Shown: piece by piece, positions 5,980-21,316 of the stretch
How the letters are laid out: every line of letters begins with the position of its first letter
How positions within the stretch are numbered: position 1 is the stretch's first letter
IMG/VR virus record: IMGVR_UViG_3300045988_115137
Length of the DNA stretch: 21,316 nt
Reading direction: 5' to 3' (one strand)
Source of the DNA: a virus
Taxonomy: Duplodnaviria; Heunggongvirae; Uroviricota; Caudoviricetes
Notes under the pieces: model-generated
Told to the model about the DNA's origin: nothing
The model's input: the letters and a program-made list of their open reading frames with translations, nothing else
Databases searched by the model: none
Program-made: the position numbers and the translations under genes

Positions 5980-6068
5980 GGATCTCATCTATACAGTATA
6001 AGTAGTTTTGACTGTAATTGATTGTTTTTTATATGGTTGCATGCATTAAATCTACGTCAATATCATTA

Positions 6069-6077
6069 TGTTATAAT
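6069..6077 (+). promoter_or_regulatory. Extended -10 promoter element (TGtTATAAT) for the plus-strand cargo operon
   Basis: Exact TGnTATAAT match at 6069-6077, about 29 nt upstream of the first cargo ATG (6106), in an AT-rich leader. The -35 is weak. The palindrome TTGCATGCA (6037-6045) lies where a -35 or operator would be. Confidence 0.4.
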
Positions 6078-6105
6078 GCATTACTTAAAAATGTTGGAGA
6101 TAAAA

Positions 6106-6297
6106 ATGTTAAAGCCTGCAGATGTTAATTGTTTGAAAAGCGGTGGATTTAAAATGACTGTATCTGACTCTACTGAAACTCATGCTAAATGTATTTGGCA
6201 TGATAAAGAAGGAGTTTTGCACGAGGAGTCATTCTCCATTGATTTACTGGAAATAGCAGAGAGTAAAAGTGGTATGCTTTGTCGTCCACGTAAGTGA
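6106..6297 (+). CDS. Small hypothetical protein, first gene of the cargo operon
   Basis: ~63 codons from ATG 6106, with GGAG at 6096-6099. The track's 91-aa version starts at a TTG at 6022. Alternative in-frame ATGs exist at 6091 and 6154, so the start is uncertain. AT-rich; ends 27 nt before the 226-aa gene. Confidence 0.35.
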   Translation: MLKPADVNCLKSGGFKMTVSDSTETHAKCIWHDKEGVLHEESFSIDLLEIAESKSGMLCRPRK

Positions 6298-6324
6298 ATC
6301 ATAATAAAATTCACGGGGGAAAGT

Positions 6325-7005
6325 ATGAAACAATACAGCGAATTAGAAAACAATGTTAAGAGATTCATTGTTGAGCATGAAAAAGGGATTTCTATTGATG
6401 ATATTCATCATAAGTTCCGGATGAAGGATGGTCAGAATCGCAAGATGGCAGATTATCTTATTGATAATAAAAAGATAATTTTGGAGATGAAAAGTCTTTT
6501 TTCTGACAGGGTCAAGAATGTCAATGATAAACTGAATGAGTTGGTTAAAACTGATAGTTGGCTTGCAAAAAACTGGCATGGTGCTATTCATTTAGAAGAG
6601 TTGATAAAAAGACACCCAGACTCAAAGCGATTTAGAAATGATATAATGAACTTTGCTTATGAAAATATTAAAACAAAGATAGTTAAGGAAGCTAATAAGC
6701 AAATAAATGCAACAAAGGATGTTTTGGATTTAAATGACTCGATTGGCGGGTTGATTTTGTTAAATGATAATGTCTTTTCACATGAGTCTAATTATTTGTC
6801 AGATGAAATATTATATTTGCTAGGCACAAAGAGATATTCGAGTGTTGAGTTTGTGGTTTATATTGCAAAATTGATTGATAAACAGGTTGATGTTTGTGTG
6901 CTACTTGACAGTCAATCTAAAAATAAAAATTATATTGAATGGTATATGAATAATGTTTTTTTATTGAACTGGGCGTCTTTTAATAAATATGCAATAAAGA
7001 TGTAG
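6325..7005 (+). CDS. Hypothetical protein, candidate anti-phage defense component (226 aa, no recognisable domain)
   Basis: Clean ORF with a strong SD (GGGGGAAAG) 6 nt before ATG 6325. Lys/Asn/Ile-rich composition; about 30% GC by hand count of 6301-6360. Sits at the A-cos variable locus in the tin-like position and orientation. No Walker A, HNH, reverse-transcriptase or zinc-finger motif seen. Confidence 0.6.
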   Translation: MKQYSELENNVKRFIVEHEKGISIDDIHHKFRMKDGQNRKMADYLIDNKKIILEMKSLFSDRVKNVNDKLNELVKTDSWLAKNWHGAIHLEELIKRHPDSKRFRNDIMNFAYENIKTKIVKEANKQINATKDVLDLNDSIGGLILLNDNVFSHESNYLSDEILYLLGTKRYSSVEFVVYIAKLIDKQVDVCVLLDSQSKNKNYIEWYMNNVFLLNWASFNKYAIKM

Positions 7006-7324
7006 TGGTGTGGATGGATATGAAATGAGTCAACCAAGATGCACCTTGGTCAGTAATCTCATGTGAGATACCACATATAACACCAAAAGTGTCAGGTTGA
7101 TGGCCATTGTTCACCGTTTACAGCAGATTATGGTCAACGAAAATCTGACGCCTGACGAGCTGGTCGGGTGTGCCGAAATAGTCTGGGATAATTACGGGCG
7201 GTTTAACTATATCGGTCAGTCCAGAGTTGCGCCACCACCACGCAGACGATAGAGAACGCCGCCAGTCGTGAAACTTGTTTTCAGGCTGGCGGGGTTGAAC
7301 AACGAGCGAAGTGAGGCGTTAGCA

Positions 7325-8266
7325 TTAAGTTAATTTTAATGAATGGTACTCTATCGAGCTGATTGTAGATGCGATATATTTACGATCATTTACAGAGAGT
7401 ATTGCCGCTAGTAGACGACATACCAGAGCCTGCATTTGTAGCAATATATCGCTACCATATTGACAATCATTGATACTAGAGAAACCAAGCGGTTGCCCAT
7501 TAAAAATGGCTTCATGAAAATTATCATTGCGTATAACTGAAACATTACATTCATCTGTTGCCCATGACGGGATTTTTACACCGTAATTTTCGCACATCCA
7601 ATATACTCTATTTTGATGAGATGGTTTTTTCTCTTTAATGACTTTATCCCTTTCATCCCATGCTATAGCAAAACAGCAATCAAGAGCCATATAAAGATAC
7701 TGGAATTTCTCAAAGGAAAGGTATAGTGGGTTATGTGACAGGAATAGGGAGTGTATCACCGCAGCTATTCTTTTAATGGAGCGATCATCTTTTTGTTTGT
7801 CTTTTATATAGTTAAGTGCTAGCTCTATTACTTCTTTTTCAGAGCATCCAACGAGAATAAAGTCGGTTAACTTAGTGGGCTTGATAGTGGTTGCATCAAG
7901 AAAACCAGCGTCAGTGGTTGTCAATCTTATACCCTTGAAAAAAGAGAGGCACCACACAACAAAGTTGAGAGTTTCTAACGAGGATGTGTTTTTTAATTTT
8001 AGTGTGTGCGTTTTGGGCATGCCGAATACTCGGTAACTATAAGGCATTGTGCATGTGTCACCATTAAGGTTATATACCTTTCGATTCCCAGGGTATATCC
8101 AACCATTAACAACGTTTTTATCATTGTTAATACGTTCCACGTTCTCAATAAGACCGGGTAAAGTACGCAAAGAAAATTGTTCAGTCTCAATGTTAACTTC
8201 TACTGGATAGTATCCAAACTCCGAAATAATCTCATTTGGTTGCTGTTCGTCAACTTCACCTTGCAT
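7325..8266 (-). CDS. Hypothetical protein, candidate anti-phage defense/abortive-infection component (313 aa, no recognisable domain)
   Basis: ORF with ATG at 8264-8266 (minus) preceded by GGAGAAAG at 6-nt spacing. AT-rich. Transcribed leftward from the cos-proximal side, like old in P2, but it lacks the Walker A/ATPase signature expected of Old. Confidence 0.6.
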   Translation of the reverse strand: MQGEVDEQQPNEIISEFGYYPVEVNIETEQFSLRTLPGLIENVERINNDKNVVNGWIYPGNRKVYNLNGDTCTMPYSYRVFGMPKTHTLKLKNTSSLETLNFVVWCLSFFKGIRLTTTDAGFLDATTIKPTKLTDFILVGCSEKEVIELALNYIKDKQKDDRSIKRIAAVIHSLFLSHNPLYLSFEKFQYLYMALDCCFAIAWDERDKVIKEKKPSHQNRVYWMCENYGVKIPSWATDECNVSVIRNDNFHEAIFNGQPLGFSSINDCQYGSDILLQMQALVCRLLAAILSVNDRKYIASTISSIEYHSLKLT

Positions 8267-8555: not shown

Positions 8556-9725
8556 TCAGCGTCTCAGCGCGTCGTGACGGCGCTTAGTCTGCCCGTTGAG
8601 GCGTTGTGTGTCTGCGGGGTGTTTTGTGCGGTGGTGAGCGTGTGAGGGGGGATGACGGGGTGTAAAAAAGCCGCCCGAAGGCGGGGAGGTTATGCGCTGG
8701 TCAGTGTCCAGTGAGTAGTTTTTAAAGCGGATGACCTCCTGACCGAGCCAGCCGTTTATTTCCCGAATTCTGTCCTGTAACGGGATAAGCTCATTGCGGA
8801 CAAAGACCTTTGCCACTTTCTCAATATCTCCCAGTGACCCGACGTTCTCCGGCTTGCCGCCCATCAACTGAAAGGGGATACGGTGCGCGTCCAGCAGGTC
8901 AGCGGCGCTGGCTTTTTTGATATTAAAAAAATCGTCCTTCGTTGCCACTTCACTGAGCGGGATAATTTTAATGCCGTCGGCTTTCCCCTGCGGGGCATAG
9001 AGAAACAGGTTTTTAAAGTTGTTGCGGCCTTTCGACTTCACCATGTTTTCGCGAAGCGTTTCGATATCGTTGCGATCCTGCACGGCATCGGTGACGTACA
9101 TGATGTATCCGGCATGTGCGCCGTTTTCGTAATACTTGCGGCGGAACAGCGTGGCCGACTCATTCAGCCAGGCAGAATTAAGGGCGCTGAGATATTCCGG
9201 CAGGCCGTACAGCTCCTGATTAATATCCGGCTCCAGCAGGTGAAACACGGAGCCGGGCGCGAAGGCTGTCGGCTCGTTGAAGGACGGCACCCACCAGTAA
9301 ACATCCTCCTCCACGCCACGACGGGTATATTTGGCCGGTGAGGTTTCCAGTCTGATGACCTTACCGGTGGTGCTGTAACGCTTTTCCAGAAACGCATTAC
9401 CGAACACCAGAAAATCCAGCACAAAGCGGCTGAAATCCTGTTGCGAAAGCCACGGATGCGGGATAAATGTCGAGGCCAGAATATTGCGTTTAACGTAAAT
9501 CGGTGAGCTGTGATGCACGGCAGCACGCAGGCTTTTTGCCAGACCGGTAAAGCTGACCGGCGGCTCATACCATCTGCCGTTACTGATGCACTCGACGTAA
9601 TCCAGAATGTCACGGCGGTCGAGTACCGGCACCGGCTCACCAAAGGTGAATGCCTCCATTTTCGGGGCGCTGGCGGTCATTGTTTTTGCCGCAGGTTGCG
9701 GTGTTTTCCCTTTTTTCTTGCTCAT
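8556..9725 (-). CDS. Q: Portal protein (P2 gpQ-like); ORF as found carries a probable C-terminal read-through extension
   Basis: 389-aa ORF starting MSKKKGKTPQ..., with its ATG overlapping the stop of P (TGATG). I recall P2 Q as 344 aa. The last ~45 codons are Pro/Arg/His-rich and cross the terminator hairpin, so the true product probably ends near plus-coordinate 8691. Confidence 0.85.
   Translation of the reverse strand: MSKKKGKTPQPAAKTMTASAPKMEAFTFGEPVPVLDRRDILDYVECISNGRWYEPPVSFTGLAKSLRAAVHHSSPIYVKRNILASTFIPHPWLSQQDFSRFVLDFLVFGNAFLEKRYSTTGKVIRLETSPAKYTRRGVEEDVYWWVPSFNEPTAFAPGSVFHLLEPDINQELYGLPEYLSALNSAWLNESATLFRRKYYENGAHAGYIMYVTDAVQDRNDIETLRENMVKSKGRNNFKNLFLYAPQGKADGIKIIPLSEVATKDDFFNIKKASAADLLDAHRIPFQLMGGKPENVGSLGDIEKVAKVFVRNELIPLQDRIREINGWLGQEVIRFKNYSLDTDQRITSPPSGGFFTPRHPPSHAHHRTKHPADTQRLNGQTKRRHDALRR
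8664..8685 (-). terminator. Putative intrinsic terminator at the end of the leftward P-Q late operon
   Basis: On the minus strand a GC stem CCGCC / GGCGG with a 4-nt loop is followed directly by TTTTTT (plus strand: AAAAAA 8664-8669, then CCGCC-CGAA-GGCGG 8671-8684). Confidence 0.45.
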
Positions 9726-11497
9726 CAGTAAAACTCCAGAATGGTGGATGTCAGCGGGGTGCTGATACCGGCGGTGAGTGGCTCATTTAACAGGGCGTGC
9801 ATGGTCGCCCAGGCGAGGTCGGCGTGGCTGGCTTCCTCGCTGCGGCTGGCCTCATAGGTGGCGCTGCGTCCGCTGCTGGTCATGGTCTTGCGGATAGCCA
9901 TAAACGAGCTGGTGATGTCGGTGGCGCTGACGTCATATTCCAGACAGCCACGGCGGATAACGTCTTTTGCCTTGAGCACCATTGCGGTTTTCATTTCCGG
10001 CGTGTAGCGGATATCGCGCGCGGCGGGATAGAACGAGCGCACGAGCTGGAACACGCCGACACCGAGGCCGGTGGCATCAATTCCGATGTATTCGACGTTG
10101 TATTTTTCGGTGAGTTTGCGGATGGATTCAGCCTGAGTGGCAAAGTCCATGCCTTTCCACTGGTGACGCTCAAGTATTCTGAATTTGCCACCGGCCACCA
10201 CCGGCGGTGCCAGTACCACGCATCCGGCGCTGTCGCCACGGTGTGACGGGTCGTAACCAATCCATACCGGTCGGGAGCCGAACGGATTTGCGGCAAACGG
10301 CGCATAGTCTTCCCATTCTTCCAGCGTGTCGACCATGCAGCGTTGCAGCTCCTCGAACGGGAATACCGACGCCTTGTCGTCAACAAATTCACACATGAAC
10401 AGGTTTTTAAAATCGTCGGCGCTGTTTTCGCGTTTAAGCTGCTCAATGTCGAACAATGTGCAGCCACCTTTCAGGGCGTCCTCAATGGTGACAATCTGCC
10501 GCCACTGGCCGTCCGCACAGAGAAGACCTCCGGCAAGGGCGTTATGACTGACGTCGATTTCCACGCGTTCGGCGGCGCTGGCGCGTCCCCGGTTAAACAG
10601 TTCACCGGACCAGAACGGATAGGCGTCGTGCGCCAGCGTGGACGGGGTGGAGAAATAGGTCGAGCGCAGGTGACTCTGTGAGGCCATACCTGATGCCACC
10701 TTACGCAGTACCTGAAAATTCGGGATCCAGAAAATCTCGTCGACGTACAGGTCGCCGTTATGGCTCTGTGCGGTGTTGGAGTTGGTGCCGAGAAAAATCA
10801 GTTTTGCGCCGTTATTGCCCAGGACAATCGGGTCACCGGTCAGGTCAACGTCAACCAGCCGGGCAAAGGCGATGATGTATTCACGGAACACATACGCCTG
10901 CGTTTTACTGGCCGACAGAAAAATCTGGTTATGACCGGTTTTCAGGGCGCGCAGCAGTGCCTCGCGGGAAAAATAAAACGTCGCGCCAATCTGGCGGGAT
11001 TTCAGGATATCGCGGATGCGGTGCTCAAGCCCGGCGCGATACCAGTGCAACTGATAGTCGAAAGACTGCTCAAAGAAAATCTGCTCCAGCTTTTCGATGG
11101 CCTCGTCACTGAAAAAATTTTTTTTCGGTTTGCGCCGCCCGCCTTTGTTGCGGTTAGCGACGTTCGGATTAAGGTCTGCCTCGTTGCCGGTCTGGCTGTA
11201 ACGATTTACCCGTGCCAGTCGTTCAATCTGGCGTCCCAGCAGGTCAATTTCCTTGAAGTCACCGCCGGTTTTCTGCGGTTTGATGATGAGCTGGGTCAGC
11301 CGCGCTTCCAGGCTCATTTCGACACGGCTGATGGGGGCAACGCTGTCCCAGCCGTCGCGCTGTTTCCAGCTCTGCACCGTCGGGCGTTTCATCTGCAACA
11401 TGGCGGCAATCTGCGGCACGGAAAACCCCTGCCAGTACAGCAGCGCCGCCTGACGACGCGGGTCGTGTAAAAGAGTGGTGTCTGTGGTGATGGTCAT
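9725..11497 (-). CDS. P: Terminase large (ATPase) subunit (P2 gpP-like)
   Basis: 590 aa from ATG 11495-11497 (MTITTDTT...); the track start at 11527 is a TTG. The length matches my recollection of P2 P. Its stop overlaps the Q start. Confidence 0.9.
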   Translation of the reverse strand: MTITTDTTLLHDPRRQAALLYWQGFSVPQIAAMLQMKRPTVQSWKQRDGWDSVAPISRVEMSLEARLTQLIIKPQKTGGDFKEIDLLGRQIERLARVNRYSQTGNEADLNPNVANRNKGGRRKPKKNFFSDEAIEKLEQIFFEQSFDYQLHWYRAGLEHRIRDILKSRQIGATFYFSREALLRALKTGHNQIFLSASKTQAYVFREYIIAFARLVDVDLTGDPIVLGNNGAKLIFLGTNSNTAQSHNGDLYVDEIFWIPNFQVLRKVASGMASQSHLRSTYFSTPSTLAHDAYPFWSGELFNRGRASAAERVEIDVSHNALAGGLLCADGQWRQIVTIEDALKGGCTLFDIEQLKRENSADDFKNLFMCEFVDDKASVFPFEELQRCMVDTLEEWEDYAPFAANPFGSRPVWIGYDPSHRGDSAGCVVLAPPVVAGGKFRILERHQWKGMDFATQAESIRKLTEKYNVEYIGIDATGLGVGVFQLVRSFYPAARDIRYTPEMKTAMVLKAKDVIRRGCLEYDVSATDITSSFMAIRKTMTSSGRSATYEASRSEEASHADLAWATMHALLNEPLTAGISTPLTSTILEFY

Positions 11498-11670
11498 GAA
11501 TACCTCGCCGTGATGAATACACGGCAAGGCTACTGAGTCGCGCCCCGCGATTCGCTAAGGTGCTGTTGTGTCAGTGATAAGCCATCCGGGACTGATGGCG
11601 GAGGATGCGCATCGTCGGGAAACTGATGCCGACATGTGACTCCTCTAATCACTATTCAGGACTCCTGACA
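11498..11670. promoter_or_regulatory. Divergent late promoter region between P and O (putative)
   Basis: 173-bp interval between the divergent P (minus) and O (plus) starts, where P2 places two activator-dependent late promoters. I found no exact TGT-N12-ACA dyad by eye, so this is positional inference only. Confidence 0.3.
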
Positions 11671-12525
11671 ATGGCAAAAAAAGTCTCAAAATTCTTTCGT
11701 ATCGGCGTTGAGGGTGACACCTGTGACGGGCGTGTCATCAGTGCGCAGGATATTCAGGAAATGGCCGAAACCTTTGACCCGCGTGTCTATGGTTGCCGCA
11801 TTAACCTGGAACATCTGCGCGGCATCCTGCCTGACGGTATTTTTAAGCGTTATGGCGATGTGGCCGAACTGAAGGCCGAAAAGATTGACGATGATTCGGC
11901 GCTGAAAGGCAAATGGGCGCTGTTTGCGAAAATCACCCCGACCGATGACCTTATCGCGATGAACAAGGCTGCGCAGAAGGTCTACACCTCAATGGAAATT
12001 CAGCCGAACTTTGCCAACACCGGCAAATGTTATCTGGTGGGTCTGGCCGTCACCGATGACCCGGCAAGCCTCGGCACGGAATACCTGGAATTCTGCCGCA
12101 CGGCAAAACACAACCCTCTGAACCGCTTCAAATTAAGCCCTGAAAACCTGATTTCAGTGGCAACGCCTGTTGAGCTGGAATTTGAAGACCTGCCTGAAAC
12201 CGTGTTCACCGCCCTGACCGAAAAGGTGAAATCCATTTTTGGCCGCAAACAGGCCAGCGATGACGCCCGTCTGAATGACGTGCATGAAGCGGTGACCGCT
12301 GTTGCTGAACATGTGCAGGAAAAACTGAGCACCACTGAGCAGCGCCTCGCTGAGATGGAAAACGCCTTTTCCGCACTTAAGCAGGATGTGACTGACAGGG
12401 CGGATGAAACCAGCCAGGCATTCACCCGCCTGAAAAACAGTCTCGACCACACCGAAAGTCTGACCCAGCAGCGCCGCAGCAAGGCCACCGGCGGTGGCGG
12501 TGACGCCCTGATGACGAACTGCTGA
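11671..12525 (+). CDS. O: Capsid scaffolding protein (P2 gpO-like)
   Basis: 284 aa from ATG 11671 (MAKKVSKFF...); the track start at 11605 is upstream and in frame. The length matches P2 O as recalled. It is directly upstream of the major capsid gene. Confidence 0.85.
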   Translation: MAKKVSKFFRIGVEGDTCDGRVISAQDIQEMAETFDPRVYGCRINLEHLRGILPDGIFKRYGDVAELKAEKIDDDSALKGKWALFAKITPTDDLIAMNKAAQKVYTSMEIQPNFANTGKCYLVGLAVTDDPASLGTEYLEFCRTAKHNPLNRFKLSPENLISVATPVELEFEDLPETVFTALTEKVKSIFGRKQASDDARLNDVHEAVTAVAEHVQEKLSTTEQRLAEMENAFSALKQDVTDRADETSQAFTRLKNSLDHTESLTQQRRSKATGGGGDALMTNC

Positions 12526-12583: not shown

Positions 12584-13657
12584 ATGCGCCAGGAAACCCG
12601 CTTTAAATTTAATGCCTACCTGTCCCGTGTTGCCGAACTGAACGGCATCGACGCCGGTGATGTGTCGAAAAAATTCACCGTTGAACCGTCGGTCACCCAG
12701 ACCCTGATGAACACCATGCAGGAGTCCTCTGACTTTCTGACCCGCATCAACATTGTGCCGGTCAGCGAAATGAAAGGGGAAAAAATTGGTATTGGTGTCA
12801 CCGGCTCCATTGCCAGCACCACCGACACCGCCGGTGGCACCGAGCGTCAGCCGAAGGACTTCTCGAAGCTGGCGTCAAACAAGTACGAATGCGACCAGAT
12901 TAATTTCGATTTTTATATCCGCTACAAAACGCTGGACCTGTGGGCGCGTTATCAGGATTTCCAGCTCCGTGTCCGTAACGCCATTATCAAACGCCAGTCC
13001 CTTGATTTCATCATGGCCGGTTTTAACGGCGTGAGGCGTGCCGAAACCTCTGACCGCAGCAGCAATCCGATGCTGCAGGATGTGGCGGTCGGCTGGCTGC
13101 AGAAATACCGCAATGAAGCCCCGGCGCGCGTGATGAGCAAGGTCACTGACGAGGAAGGTCACACGACCTCTGAGGTCATCCGCGTGGGTAAGGGCGGTGA
13201 TTATGCCAGCCTCGATGCACTGGTGATGGATGCGACCAACAACCTGATTGAGCCGTGGTATCAGGAAGACCCTGACCTTGTGGTGATTGTGGGGCGTCAG
13301 CTACTGGCGGACAAGTATTTCCCCATCGTTAACAAGGAGCAGGACAACAGCGAGATGCTGGCCGCTGACGTCATCATCAGCCAGAAACGCATCGGCAACC
13401 TGCCGGCGGTACGCGTCCCGTACTTCCCGGCGGATGCGATGCTCATCACGAAGCTGGAAAACCTGTCCATCTACTACATGGATGACAGCCATCGCCGCGT
13501 GATTGAGGAAAACCCGAAACTCGACCGCGTGGAGAACTACGAGTCAATGAATATTGATTACGTGGTGGAAGACTACGCCGCCGGTTGTCTGGTGGAAAAA
13601 ATTAAGGTCGGTGATTTCTCCACACTGGCTAAAGCGACCGCAGAGCCGGGAGCGTAA
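12584..13657 (+). CDS. N: Major capsid protein (P2 gpN-like)
   Basis: 357-aa ORF with ATG at 12584 and an AGGA-type SD; length and position match P2 N. Confidence 0.9.
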   Translation: MRQETRFKFNAYLSRVAELNGIDAGDVSKKFTVEPSVTQTLMNTMQESSDFLTRINIVPVSEMKGEKIGIGVTGSIASTTDTAGGTERQPKDFSKLASNKYECDQINFDFYIRYKTLDLWARYQDFQLRVRNAIIKRQSLDFIMAGFNGVRRAETSDRSSNPMLQDVAVGWLQKYRNEAPARVMSKVTDEEGHTTSEVIRVGKGGDYASLDALVMDATNNLIEPWYQEDPDLVVIVGRQLLADKYFPIVNKEQDNSEMLAADVIISQKRIGNLPAVRVPYFPADAMLITKLENLSIYYMDDSHRRVIEENPKLDRVENYESMNIDYVVEDYAAGCLVEKIKVGDFSTLAKATAEPGA

Positions 13658-18921: not shown

Positions 18922-19830
18922 ATGCCGATTATCGACCTGAACCAGCTACCCGCACCGGATGTGGTCGAGGAGCTGGACTTTGAAACCATTCTTGCCGAAC
19001 GCAAGGCGACACTGATTTCCCTTTACCCGGAAGACCAGCAGGAGGCGGTTGCCCGTACCCTGACGCTGGAATCCGAGCCTCTCGTCAAACTGCTGGAGGA
19101 AAATGCTTATCGTGAGCTTATCTGGCGTCAGCGTGTGAATGAGGCCGCACGGGCGGTGATGCTGGCCTGTGCCGCCGGTAATGACCTTGATGTGATTGGT
19201 GCCAATTACAACACCACGCGCCTGACTATCACCCCGGCAGATGATTCGACTATCCCGCCGACACCGGCAGTGATGGAGTCTGACACCGATTATCGTCTGC
19301 GTATTCAGCAGGCGTTTGAGGGCTTAAGCGTCGCCGGGTCGGTGGGAGCCTATCAGTATCATGGTCGCAGTGCCGACGGGCGTGTCGCGGATATCTCGGT
19401 CACCAGTCCGTCTCCGGCCTGCGTCACCATCTCTGTGCTGTCACGTGAAAATAACGGTGTGGCATCCGAAGACCTGCTGGCCGTGGTGCGTAACGCCCTT
19501 AATGGCGAGGACGTCAGGCCGGTGGCCGACCGCGTGACCGTGCAGTCTGCCACCATTGTTGAATACCAGATAAACGCCACGCTTTACCTTTACCCTGGTC
19601 CCGAAAGCGAACCCATCCGCGCTGCTGCCGTGAAAAAACTGGAAGCGTACATCACGGCGCAGCACCGGCTGGGGCGCGACATCCGTCTGTCTGCCATTTA
19701 TGCCGCTTTGCATGTGGAAGGCGTGCAGCGTGTCGAGCTGGCCGCACCACTGGCCGACATTGTGCTCAACAGTACGCAGGCGTCTTTCTGTACCGAATAC
19801 CGCGTCGTGACCGGAGGCTCGGATGAGTGA
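18922..19830 (+). CDS. J: Baseplate assembly protein (P2 gpJ-like)
   Basis: 302-aa ORF; P2 J length and position. Confidence 0.85.
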   Translation: MPIIDLNQLPAPDVVEELDFETILAERKATLISLYPEDQQEAVARTLTLESEPLVKLLEENAYRELIWRQRVNEAARAVMLACAAGNDLDVIGANYNTTRLTITPADDSTIPPTPAVMESDTDYRLRIQQAFEGLSVAGSVGAYQYHGRSADGRVADISVTSPSPACVTISVLSRENNGVASEDLLAVVRNALNGEDVRPVADRVTVQSATIVEYQINATLYLYPGPESEPIRAAAVKKLEAYITAQHRLGRDIRLSAIYAALHVEGVQRVELAAPLADIVLNSTQASFCTEYRVVTGGSDE

Positions 19831-20353
19831 TTCGCGCCTGCTGCCGACCGGCTCATCGCCGCTTGAAATTGCTGCCGCAAAAGCCTGTGCGGAAATTGAA
19901 AAAACGCCGGTCAGTATTCGTGAGCTGTGGAACCCGGATGCCTGTCCGGCAAATCTGCTGCCGTGGCTGGCGTGGGCGTTTTCGGTCGACAGGTGGGATG
20001 AAAAGTGGCCGGAAGCAACAAAACGCGCCGTTATCCGCGATGCGTATTTCATTCACTGCCATAAGGGCACTATAGGCGCAATCCGGCGTGTGGTGGAGCC
20101 GCTCGGCTATCTCATCAACGTGACGGAGTGGTGGGAAAACAGTGACCCGCCCGGCACCTTCCGGCTTGATATTGGTGTACTGGAAAGTGGCATCACAGAG
20201 GCAATGTATCAGGAAATGGAACGGCTTATTGCTGATGCCAAACCTGCAAGTCGTCATCTTATTGGCCTGAACATTACCCGGGACATTCCCGGCTACCTGT
20301 TCGCCGGTGGTGTGGCTTACGACGGCGATGTAATTACGGTTTACCCCGGATAA
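19823..20353 (+). CDS. I: Baseplate protein (P2 gpI-like)
   Basis: 176-aa ORF; its start overlaps the J stop; P2 I length. Confidence 0.8.
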   Translation: MSDSRLLPTGSSPLEIAAAKACAEIEKTPVSIRELWNPDACPANLLPWLAWAFSVDRWDEKWPEATKRAVIRDAYFIHCHKGTIGAIRRVVEPLGYLINVTEWWENSDPPGTFRLDIGVLESGITEAMYQEMERLIADAKPASRHLIGLNITRDIPGYLFAGGVAYDGDVITVYPG

Positions 20354-20363
20354 GTGAGGAATA

Positions 20364-21316
20364 ATGAGCACAAAATTCAAAACCGTTATCACCACTGCCG
20401 GTGCAGCAAAGCTGGCAGCGGCAACCGCACCGGGAGGGCGGAAGGTCAACATTACCACGATGGCCGTCGGGGATGGCGGTGGTAAATTGCCTGTCCCGGA
20501 TGCCGGACAGACCGGGCTTATCCACGAAGTCTGGCGGCATGCGCTGAACAAAATCAGCCAGGACAAACGAAACAGTAATTATATTATCGCAGAGCTGGTT
20601 ATTCCGCCGGAGGTGGGCGGTTTCTGGATGCGTGAGCTTGGCCTGTACGATGATGCTGGAACGTTAATTGCCGTGGCGAACATGGCCGAAAGTTATAAGC
20701 CAGCTCTTGCCGAAGGCTCAGGGCGTTCGCAGACCTGCCGCATGGTCATCATCGTCAGCAGTGTGGCCTCAGTGGCGCTGACCATTGACACCACAACGGT
20801 GATGGCGACGCAGGATTACGTTGATGACAAAATTGCAGAGCACGAACAGTCACGACGTCACCCGGACGCCTCGCTGACCGCAAAAGGTTTTACTCAGTTA
20901 AGCAGTGCGACCAACAGCACGTCTGAAACACTGGCCGCAACGCCGAAAGCGGTAAAGGCTGCTTATGATCTTGCTAACGGGAAATATACCGCGCAGGATG
21001 CCACCACAGCGCGAAAAGGCCTTGTCCAGCTCAGTAGCGCCACCAACAGCACGTCTGAAACGCTCGCCGCAACGCCGAAAGCGGTAAAGGCAGCATATGA
21101 CCTTGCTAACGGGAAATACACTGCACAGGACGCCACCACAGCGCGAAAAGGTCTTGTCCAGCTCAGTAGTGCGACTAACAGCACTTCCGAGTCACTGGCG
21201 GCAACACCAAAAGCCGTTAAGGCCGCGTATGACCTGGCTAACGGGAAATACACCGCACAGGATGCAACGACAGCACAGAAAGGGATAATCCAGCTAAGCA
21301 GCGCGACCAACAGCAC
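20364..21316 (+). CDS. H: Tail fibre protein (P2 gpH-like), 5' partial; open reading frame runs off the window end
   Basis: ATG at 20364 preceded by GTGAGGA, 10 nt after the I stop. The frame stays open to 21316 (MSTKFKTVITTAG...). It is absent from the ORF track because no stop lies in the window. It contains tandem repeats. Confidence 0.8.
   Translation, partial: MSTKFKTVITTAGAAKLAAATAPGGRKVNITTMAVGDGGGKLPVPDAGQTGLIHEVWRHALNKISQDKRNSNYIIAELVIPPEVGGFWMRELGLYDDAGTLIAVANMAESYKPALAEGSGRSQTCRMVIIVSSVASVALTIDTTTVMATQDYVDDKIAEHEQSRRHPDASLTAKGFTQLSSATNSTSETLAATPKAVKAAYDLANGKYTAQDATTARKGLVQLSSATNSTSETLAATPKAVKAAYDLANGKYTAQDATTARKGLVQLSSATNSTSESLAATPKAVKAAYDLANGKYTAQDATTAQKGIIQLSSATNS
20889..21316 (+). 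repeat. In-frame 132-bp (44-aa) tandem repeat array inside the tail-fibre gene (at least 3.2 copies, continues beyond window)
   Basis: Unit (F/L)(T/V)QLSSATNSTSE(T/S)LAATPKAVKAAYDLANGKYTAQDATTA(R/Q)KG recurs at about 20889, 21021, 21153 and 21285 with only a few nucleotide differences. The same repeat creates the spurious minus-strand ORF at 20963-21316. Confidence 0.8.

Follow-up and report, generated by a model that had tools for sequence, protein, structure and literature searches.

How did a phage tail-fibre gene come to carry a run of tandem 132-nt repeats, and is the run a recent change in the fibre or an old part of it? The gene lies at the 3′ end of a 21,316-nt stretch of viral DNA (IMG/VR record IMGVR_UViG_3300045988_115137), which we call the window. 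An earlier note on this DNA had described the units as differing at only a few nucleotides and had attributed them to recent expansion by slipped or unequal recombination. Comparison of the array with related genes leads us to another answer, which we consider likely: the array is a conserved 44-residue PF03406 shaft module of a P2 gpH-type fibre, built of old duplicates and recombinant with the gene for a lambdoid side tail fibre (Stf).

A tail-fibre gene of the P2 gpH type at the end of the window

The gene, its N-terminal domain and its upstream neighbours lie as follows.

18922-19830, + strand: gpJ, an open reading frame; baseplate gene upstream of H
19823-20353, + strand: gpI, an open reading frame directly 5′ of H, with a match to PF09684 (Tail_P2_I)
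20364-21316, + strand: P2 gpH-type tail-fibre gene, 5′ part of 953 nt (317 codons); ATG-started open frame, cut by the window end
20364-20816, + strand: N-terminal baseplate-attachment domain, aa 1-151, by Pfam match to PF12571 ('Phage tail-collar fibre protein, N-terminal')

The frame that starts at the ATG at 20364 remains open at the last base of the window. Its 317-residue product matched PF12571 with 199 bits (E 5.1e-59), residues 1-151 aligning with profile positions 1-150 of 150. The same fragment matched PF03406 ('Phage tail fibre repeat', Phage_fiber_2) with 218.1 bits (E 6.7e-66), well over the gathering score of 22 bits, in four stretches, the best of which aligned residues 170-210 with profile positions 1-41 of 42. 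The earlier note had called this a tail-fibre gene and had proposed a search for Pfam tail-fibre repeat families; the two domain matches, together with the location after gpJ and gpI of a P2-like prophage, bear out that assignment.

At the DNA level, identity of the gene fragment to gene H was 93-95% for P2 and other Peduovirus phages, and it rose to as much as 98.8% for the P2-like prophages found in 917 complete E. coli genomes; all close relatives have the gene annotated as a tail fibre. With gpJ and gpI upstream (18922-20353), the gene occupies the P2 'H' position. Gene order is P2-like across the whole window (int ... A ... Q P O N ... V W J I H), which encodes integrase, replication gene A, portal, terminase, capsid and lysis genes besides V, W, J and I. 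An exact-protein look-up placed the identical gpI between Baseplate_J and a tail fibre in ten P2-like prophages. The window gene thus has both the PF12571 domain and the location 3′ of J and I that mark a P2 gpH-type gene; the cognate assembly chaperone gene that would follow such a gene (gpG, PF02413) would lie past the window end. It is not itself a lambdoid Stf gene, as PF12571 is present and PF08400, the N-terminal domain of Stf, is absent; 21159-21316 alone is of Stf origin. An AlphaFold monomer model of the 317-aa fragment reached good confidence for residues 1-133 only, in the N-terminal domain, while the repeat region had a pLDDT of 30-50 and was uninformative.

P2 gpH itself (NC_001895, gene H, 669 aa) resembles the window gene in its position after V-W-J-I, in its PF12571 domain and in a 44-aa repeat that begins at residue 176, and the DNA of the shared part is 93-94% identical. 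It differs in repeat number, with one full unit and a terminal, half-degenerate one (two cores), compared with three full units and the start of a fourth in the window. As the repeat is present both in P2 gpH and in the closest E. coli relatives, it is a textbook feature of the gpH family.

Elsewhere in this P2-like prophage, a variable cargo site (6022-8266) separates replication gene A from the portal gene and holds two open reading frames.

6325-7005, + strand: cargo open reading frame, 226 aa
7325-8266, - strand: cargo open reading frame, 313 aa

Neither gave any Pfam or PADLOC match. At the equivalent site between A and portal, a close relative carries retron reverse transcriptases and an Ec48-type effector, and the two frames may be uncharacterised defence cargo.

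Repeat units that agree in protein and differ in DNA

Tandem Repeats Finder reported one strong array in the window, at 20907-21316, with period 132, 3.1 copies, 84% matches and a score of 568, and a separate repeat search returned three copies at 132-nt spacing. Self-identity of the array was 0.83 at an offset of 132, compared with 0.24-0.32 at neighbouring in-frame offsets, which places the array far above chance. The units are as follows.

20889-21020, + strand: repeat unit 1 (FTQLSSATNSTSETLAATPKAVKAAYDLANGKYTAQDATTARKG); identity 100% with unit 1 of the P2-like prophage L001, 95.5% with that of P2 gpH
21021-21152, + strand: repeat unit 2 (LVQLSS...ARKG); identity 100% with unit 2 of L001, 85.6% with window unit 1
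21153-21284, + strand: repeat unit 3 (LVQLSSATNSTSESL...AQKG); lambdoid Stf type from 21159
21285-21316, + strand: repeat unit 4 (IIQLSSATNS...), truncated after 32 nt at the window end

Each full unit is 132 nt, or 44 codons, in frame with the ATG at 20364, and the L-S-S-A-T-N-S cores fall at residues 179, 223, 267 and 311, at 44-aa spacing. The count of at least three full in-frame units at 20889-21316 given in the earlier note is therefore right, with 32 nt of a fourth unit in addition.

The degree of likeness between the units is another matter. Units 1 and 2 differ at 19 of 132 nt (85.6% identity), units 2 and 3 at 25 (81.1%) and units 1 and 3 at 29 (78.0%), so that the near-identity claimed for them holds at the protein level only. 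Any two units differ by 2-4 amino acids, and nearly all of the DNA changes are synonymous. Nei-Gojobori estimates between the window units gave dS values of 0.69, 1.85 and 1.94 and dN values of 0.042, 0.021 and 0.063. This pattern marks the window units as old duplicates under strong purifying selection on the protein. Units 1 and 2 equal their orthologues in other prophages, and between unit 1 and that of P2 the identity is 95.5%, which makes the duplication older than these phages.

The divergence also bears on the quality of the sequence. Two units have at most 26 nt in common as an exact run, and every k-mer of 30 nt or longer is unique within the array. Collapse of the array during assembly, against which the earlier note had warned, is for this reason unlikely. 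Because the window end falls within the array, the total copy number cannot be read from the window directly.

Repeat number follows the distal domain of the fibre

We examined 80 viral contigs in which the N-terminal domain of H was at least 98% identical to that of the window and counted repeat units in the 78 complete H genes among them. The count used an HMM built on the 27-residue core, as a simple regular expression for the cores missed variant units. The distribution was as follows.

2 units: 15 of 78 complete H genes
3 units: 1 of 78
4 units: 50 of 78
5 units: 12 of 78

Unit spacing in these genes was 44 residues without exception, and the best 120 database proteins had 3 to 6 units. 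Copy number thus varies among relatives, as had been anticipated, and it follows the type of distal domain. Three of the 78 genes depart from this rule, two of them by exactly one 44-aa unit. In L012, exactly unit 3 is missing from an otherwise identical gene (720 compared with 764 aa), and L063 exceeds by one unit the genes that share its distal part; the third outlier encodes 657 aa.

Adjacent full units within one gene had a median identity of 88%. The DNA of units 2 and 3 was 100% identical in L084 and 99.2% identical in L138, which marks recent duplication or gene conversion in those phages. In the 50 four-unit genes, units at the same position had a median identity of 93-95% across genomes, compared with 82-89% for different units within a gene. 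Unequal exchange, which the earlier note had invoked, is hence real in this family (L012, L084) but infrequent, and it is not the origin of the window array.

We further noticed that at L013 8542-13424, in a P2-like prophage that is otherwise identical, gene H is split just past the first of its repeat units by an IS21-family element with an rve transposase and IstB.

A junction between P2-type and Stf-type sequence in the third unit

Alignment of the window gene with six P2-like prophages (L001, L002, L008, L011, L012 and L014) revealed 0 mismatches over gene nt 1-806, that is up to 21169, followed by 32 mismatches in the last 147 nt (21170-21316). In five of the six (L001, L002, L008, L011 and L014), the fibre protein is WP_047603056.1 (764 aa), whose gene equals that of the window through nt 806, including 17 nt of unit 3. 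These loci have upstream baseplate genes essentially identical to those of the window, and their fibre has three full units, one terminal unit and a P2-type C-terminus. Unit 3 of the window was 82.6% identical to unit 3 of L001.

The last part of the window matched another gene family. A 74-mer from unit 3 was present in 45 IMG/VR contigs, and in 45 of 45 exact identity began at 21159. It extended to the window end at 21316 in 35 of the 45, and upstream of 21159 the sequence of these Stf-type contigs was unrelated to the window. The two parental types therefore overlap in one short interval.

21159-21169, + strand: crossover interval (CAGCTCAGTAG), the sole stretch where the window agrees with both parental types

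This interval sits at the V-Q-L-S-S start of unit 3. With units 1 and 2 equal to those of P2-like prophages and the sequence from 21159 onward equal to that of Stf genes, the array reads as a recombination junction and not as the product of recent slippage.

Repeat number in the complete gene can be estimated from the Stf side. In Stf-type genes, the second repeat unit is the terminal, half-degenerate one and begins IIQLSSATNS, and the cut unit 4 of the window is the start of that same unit. Judged by this match, the window gene most likely has four units (four cores) in all, as does its P2-type parent.

The junction itself was found in the window sequence only, and no second copy of the chimera turned up in any collection searched. 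Neither a 90-nt nor a 70-nt exact pattern across the joint had a match in IMG/VR viral contigs or JGI metagenome contigs. In 5426 complete E. coli genomes, the best identity to 21021-21316 was 94.3% and the junction was absent, as it was from the best 120 protein clusters in a protein search of 5.8 billion clusters and from the ten prophages with an identical gpI.

A scan of genome contigs with a 57-mer from the unit 3/4 boundary gave a single match, to a lambdoid-type contig (L004, JAEWTL010000011.1). This contig is labelled 'MAG: Bacillota bacterium' and carries an enterobacterial-type lambdoid tail module with a 1526-aa J-like protein and a side fibre that has the same junction between repeat units at 95% identity over 161 nt. 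Its content suggests a mis-binned or contaminant contig in a Bacillota MAG.

The Stf-type parent

The genes that match the window from 21159 onward are without the P2 N-terminus. They typically encode about 1020-1040 aa, with some variant or truncated, and two repeat units at about residues 484 and 528 make up the whole array. In the contig L025, the gene (9305-12385, 1026 aa) follows genes for a lambda J-type tip protein and Lom and precedes that for a Tfa chaperone, and its product carries PF08400 ('Prophage tail fibre N-terminal'), two PF03406 units and a Collar domain. This setting between J/Lom and Tfa, together with the set of domains, identifies the donor-type gene as a lambdoid side tail fibre Stf.

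In 35 contigs, the two PF03406 units of the lambdoid Stf equal window positions 21159-21316 base for base. The rest of the gene is unlike that of the window, with a PF08400 N-terminus, a long Ala/Ser/Glu-rich stretch before the repeats and a siphovirus tail module around it. Past the array, L001-type H and Stf remain homologous for about 650 nt (H nt 764-1411) at 76% identity, with a common linker peptide (AEKRLQKDQNGADIPGKDTFTKNIGACRA...). Beyond this stretch, H and Stf are unrelated, and so are their chaperone genes; the Stf-type C-terminus is ...NIAFNYIVRLA with a Collar domain, while the P2-type C-terminus is ...YINGTWYNVAQV.

Directly 3′ of stf-tfa, L025 carries a serine resolvase/invertase gene (13058-13648, - strand; PF00239 and HTH_7), a placement that resembles the e14 Pin or Mu Gin fibre switches.

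Fibre arrays in draft assemblies

Tail-fibre genes of this type are often incomplete in the databases. Most of the best 120 protein matches are annotated as 'partial' and are 300-550 aa long, from which it follows that P2-type fibre genes in draft E. coli assemblies very often run off the end of a contig. The partial fibres among these matches usually end 90-260 residues past the last repeat and not within the repeats. In one related E. coli assembly (L010; GCA_049197825.1, JBMIPP010000001.1), the whole array is replaced by 453 N at 9080-9532 with the gene length kept. Either the consensus or the assembly failed at precisely this array, or the data provider masked it.

Alternative explanations

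That the three units arose recently within the window gene, by slippage or unequal crossing-over, and that the locus is a fast copy-number switch, now appears extremely improbable. The family does offer examples of such events, in the unit lost from L012, the unit gained by L063 and the 100% and 99.2% identical adjacent units of L084 and L138. The window units, however, differ at 19-29 of 132 nt with dS of 0.7-1.9, units 1 and 2 equal their positional counterparts in other prophages (95.5% between unit 1 and that of P2), unit 3 is an exact match to another gene family, and copy number tracks the distal-domain type with 3 exceptions in 78. An error of assembly or polishing, in which a co-resident lambdoid prophage with identical Stf units gave rise to a false junction between P2-type and Stf-type sequence, is in our judgement unlikely. 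The chimera is a singleton in every collection searched, and the window end falls inside the shared tract, as would be expected of a contig break at a repeat. Stf-type donors are moreover common in E. coli (about 205 records with at least 99% identity to part of the query), and related assemblies show both the run of 453 N over the array and the truncation of most best protein matches. Against an artefact speaks the joint itself, where the parental types share 11 identical nt, far below the usual assembly k-mer or read overlap, so that a false join in a graph-based assembly would require reads that truly span the joint. The 32 flanking differences in 147 nt also allow unambiguous read mapping, and the joint has neither N nor a disruption of the frame.

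If the exchange is real, its extent can be read in two ways, as the window stops 158 nt past the junction and is still Stf type at its last base. A short conversion patch and a complete swap of the receptor-binding end are both possible, and either fits the window. In the former case, the Stf tract would be a short gene-conversion patch in an L001-type H gene, and the receptor-binding end and host range would be unchanged. We regard this as quite possible, if somewhat less than probable. The roughly 650 nt of H/Stf homology past the array (76%) and the common linker leave room for a second crossover, and frequent exchanges of about 100 bp within phage genes have been described (PMC3945230). 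On the other side, the tract has not returned to P2 type by the last base, and the window carries no bearing on this reading. A patch is in any case a variant of recombination within the array and does not contradict it.

Discussion

The explanation we favour, an old shaft module that has recombined with a lambdoid Stf gene, can be set out in molecular terms. The PF03406 units, which follow the baseplate-binding domain and precede the variable distal part, and which a myovirus and a siphovirus fibre gene share base for base, would form the proximal shaft of a trimeric fibre, and each unit would add a fixed length to the shaft. The distal part would be the receptor-binding one. The units would be ancient duplicates, in which purifying selection holds the protein nearly constant while the codons drift apart. 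The N-terminal domain and units 1 and 2 would derive from a common E. coli P2-like lineage and, from the first codons of unit 3 onward, with a crossover within 21159-21169, the DNA would come from a lambdoid Stf gene. Conserved units of this kind may provide the homology by which distal fibre modules or patches move. The occurrence of the same repeat in the otherwise unrelated P2 H, lambdoid Stf and Mu S points to such a role in the exchange of distal parts.

Published work gives this scheme some background. That fibre segments pass horizontally between P2, Mu, P1, lambda and T-even phages is long established (references 71-74 of PMC3945230; Haggard-Ljungquist et al. 1992 and Sandmeier 1994 as cited there), and sequences 12-17% diverged are still recombined by phage Rad52-like recombinases (PMC3945230). 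The exchange in the window would have taken place in vivo, by homologous or homeologous recombination. The 11 nt of identity between the sampled parents are fewer than the minimal pairing lengths reported for RecA and Red-beta, so the true parents may differ from those sampled here.

Other known systems help to delimit what the array may do. The tail fibre S of phage Mu (gp49; PDB 5yvq, 8ju3, 9ki1) carries the repeat motif (KGLVQLTSATDSPSETLAATAKAVKIAMDNAN) once, in its proximal part. It is a trimer that docks on the baseplate wedge by its N-terminus and binds LPS by its C-terminus (PMC11915804). Mu S differs from the window gene in having a single unit, and its distal part is switched by the Gin invertase. 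We considered an invertase-switched fibre for the window as well. No match to a gix/hix-like crossover-site pattern was found in the window, and no inverted repeats were found in 20300-21316; the distal part of the fibre gene and the genes 3′ of it lie beyond the window. Slipped-strand contingency repeats are another point of comparison, as they too are in-frame tandem repeats of strain-variable number in a host-interaction gene. Those repeats are short and identical and change at high frequency, whereas the window units are 132 nt long, 14-22% diverged and mostly fixed per fibre type. The near-identical unit DNA that characterizes a contingency switch is not seen here, with 78-86% identity between units and a longest shared run of 26 nt. 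The P2 pseudotyping paper (PMC9594776) contains nothing on repeats.

None of the underlying elements is new: the repeat family, the occurrence of the repeat in P2 gpH and the modular exchange of fibre parts among unrelated phages were described decades ago. The noteworthy point is a cleanly mapped crossover between P2-type and Stf-type sequence inside the array. A bolder idea, to which we give little credence, is that the synonymous divergence is itself selected, since it would suppress recombination within the array and stabilise fibre length, and that the array is a register-specific adaptor for swaps of receptor-binding modules between myoviruses (P2-like) and siphoviruses (lambdoid). If this were true, the window would hold a cross-family exchange caught in the act, and each positional unit would be kept conserved between phages.

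Tail fibres determine which bacteria a phage or a phage-derived tailocin can attack. The locus is a reminder that contigs often break in tail-fibre genes. On the explanation we favour, the window would be a base-resolved case of a P2-like prophage that gained lambda-like fibre sequence by way of a 44-residue repeat, and it may serve as a natural guide to fusion points for the engineering of P2 or pyocin fibres.
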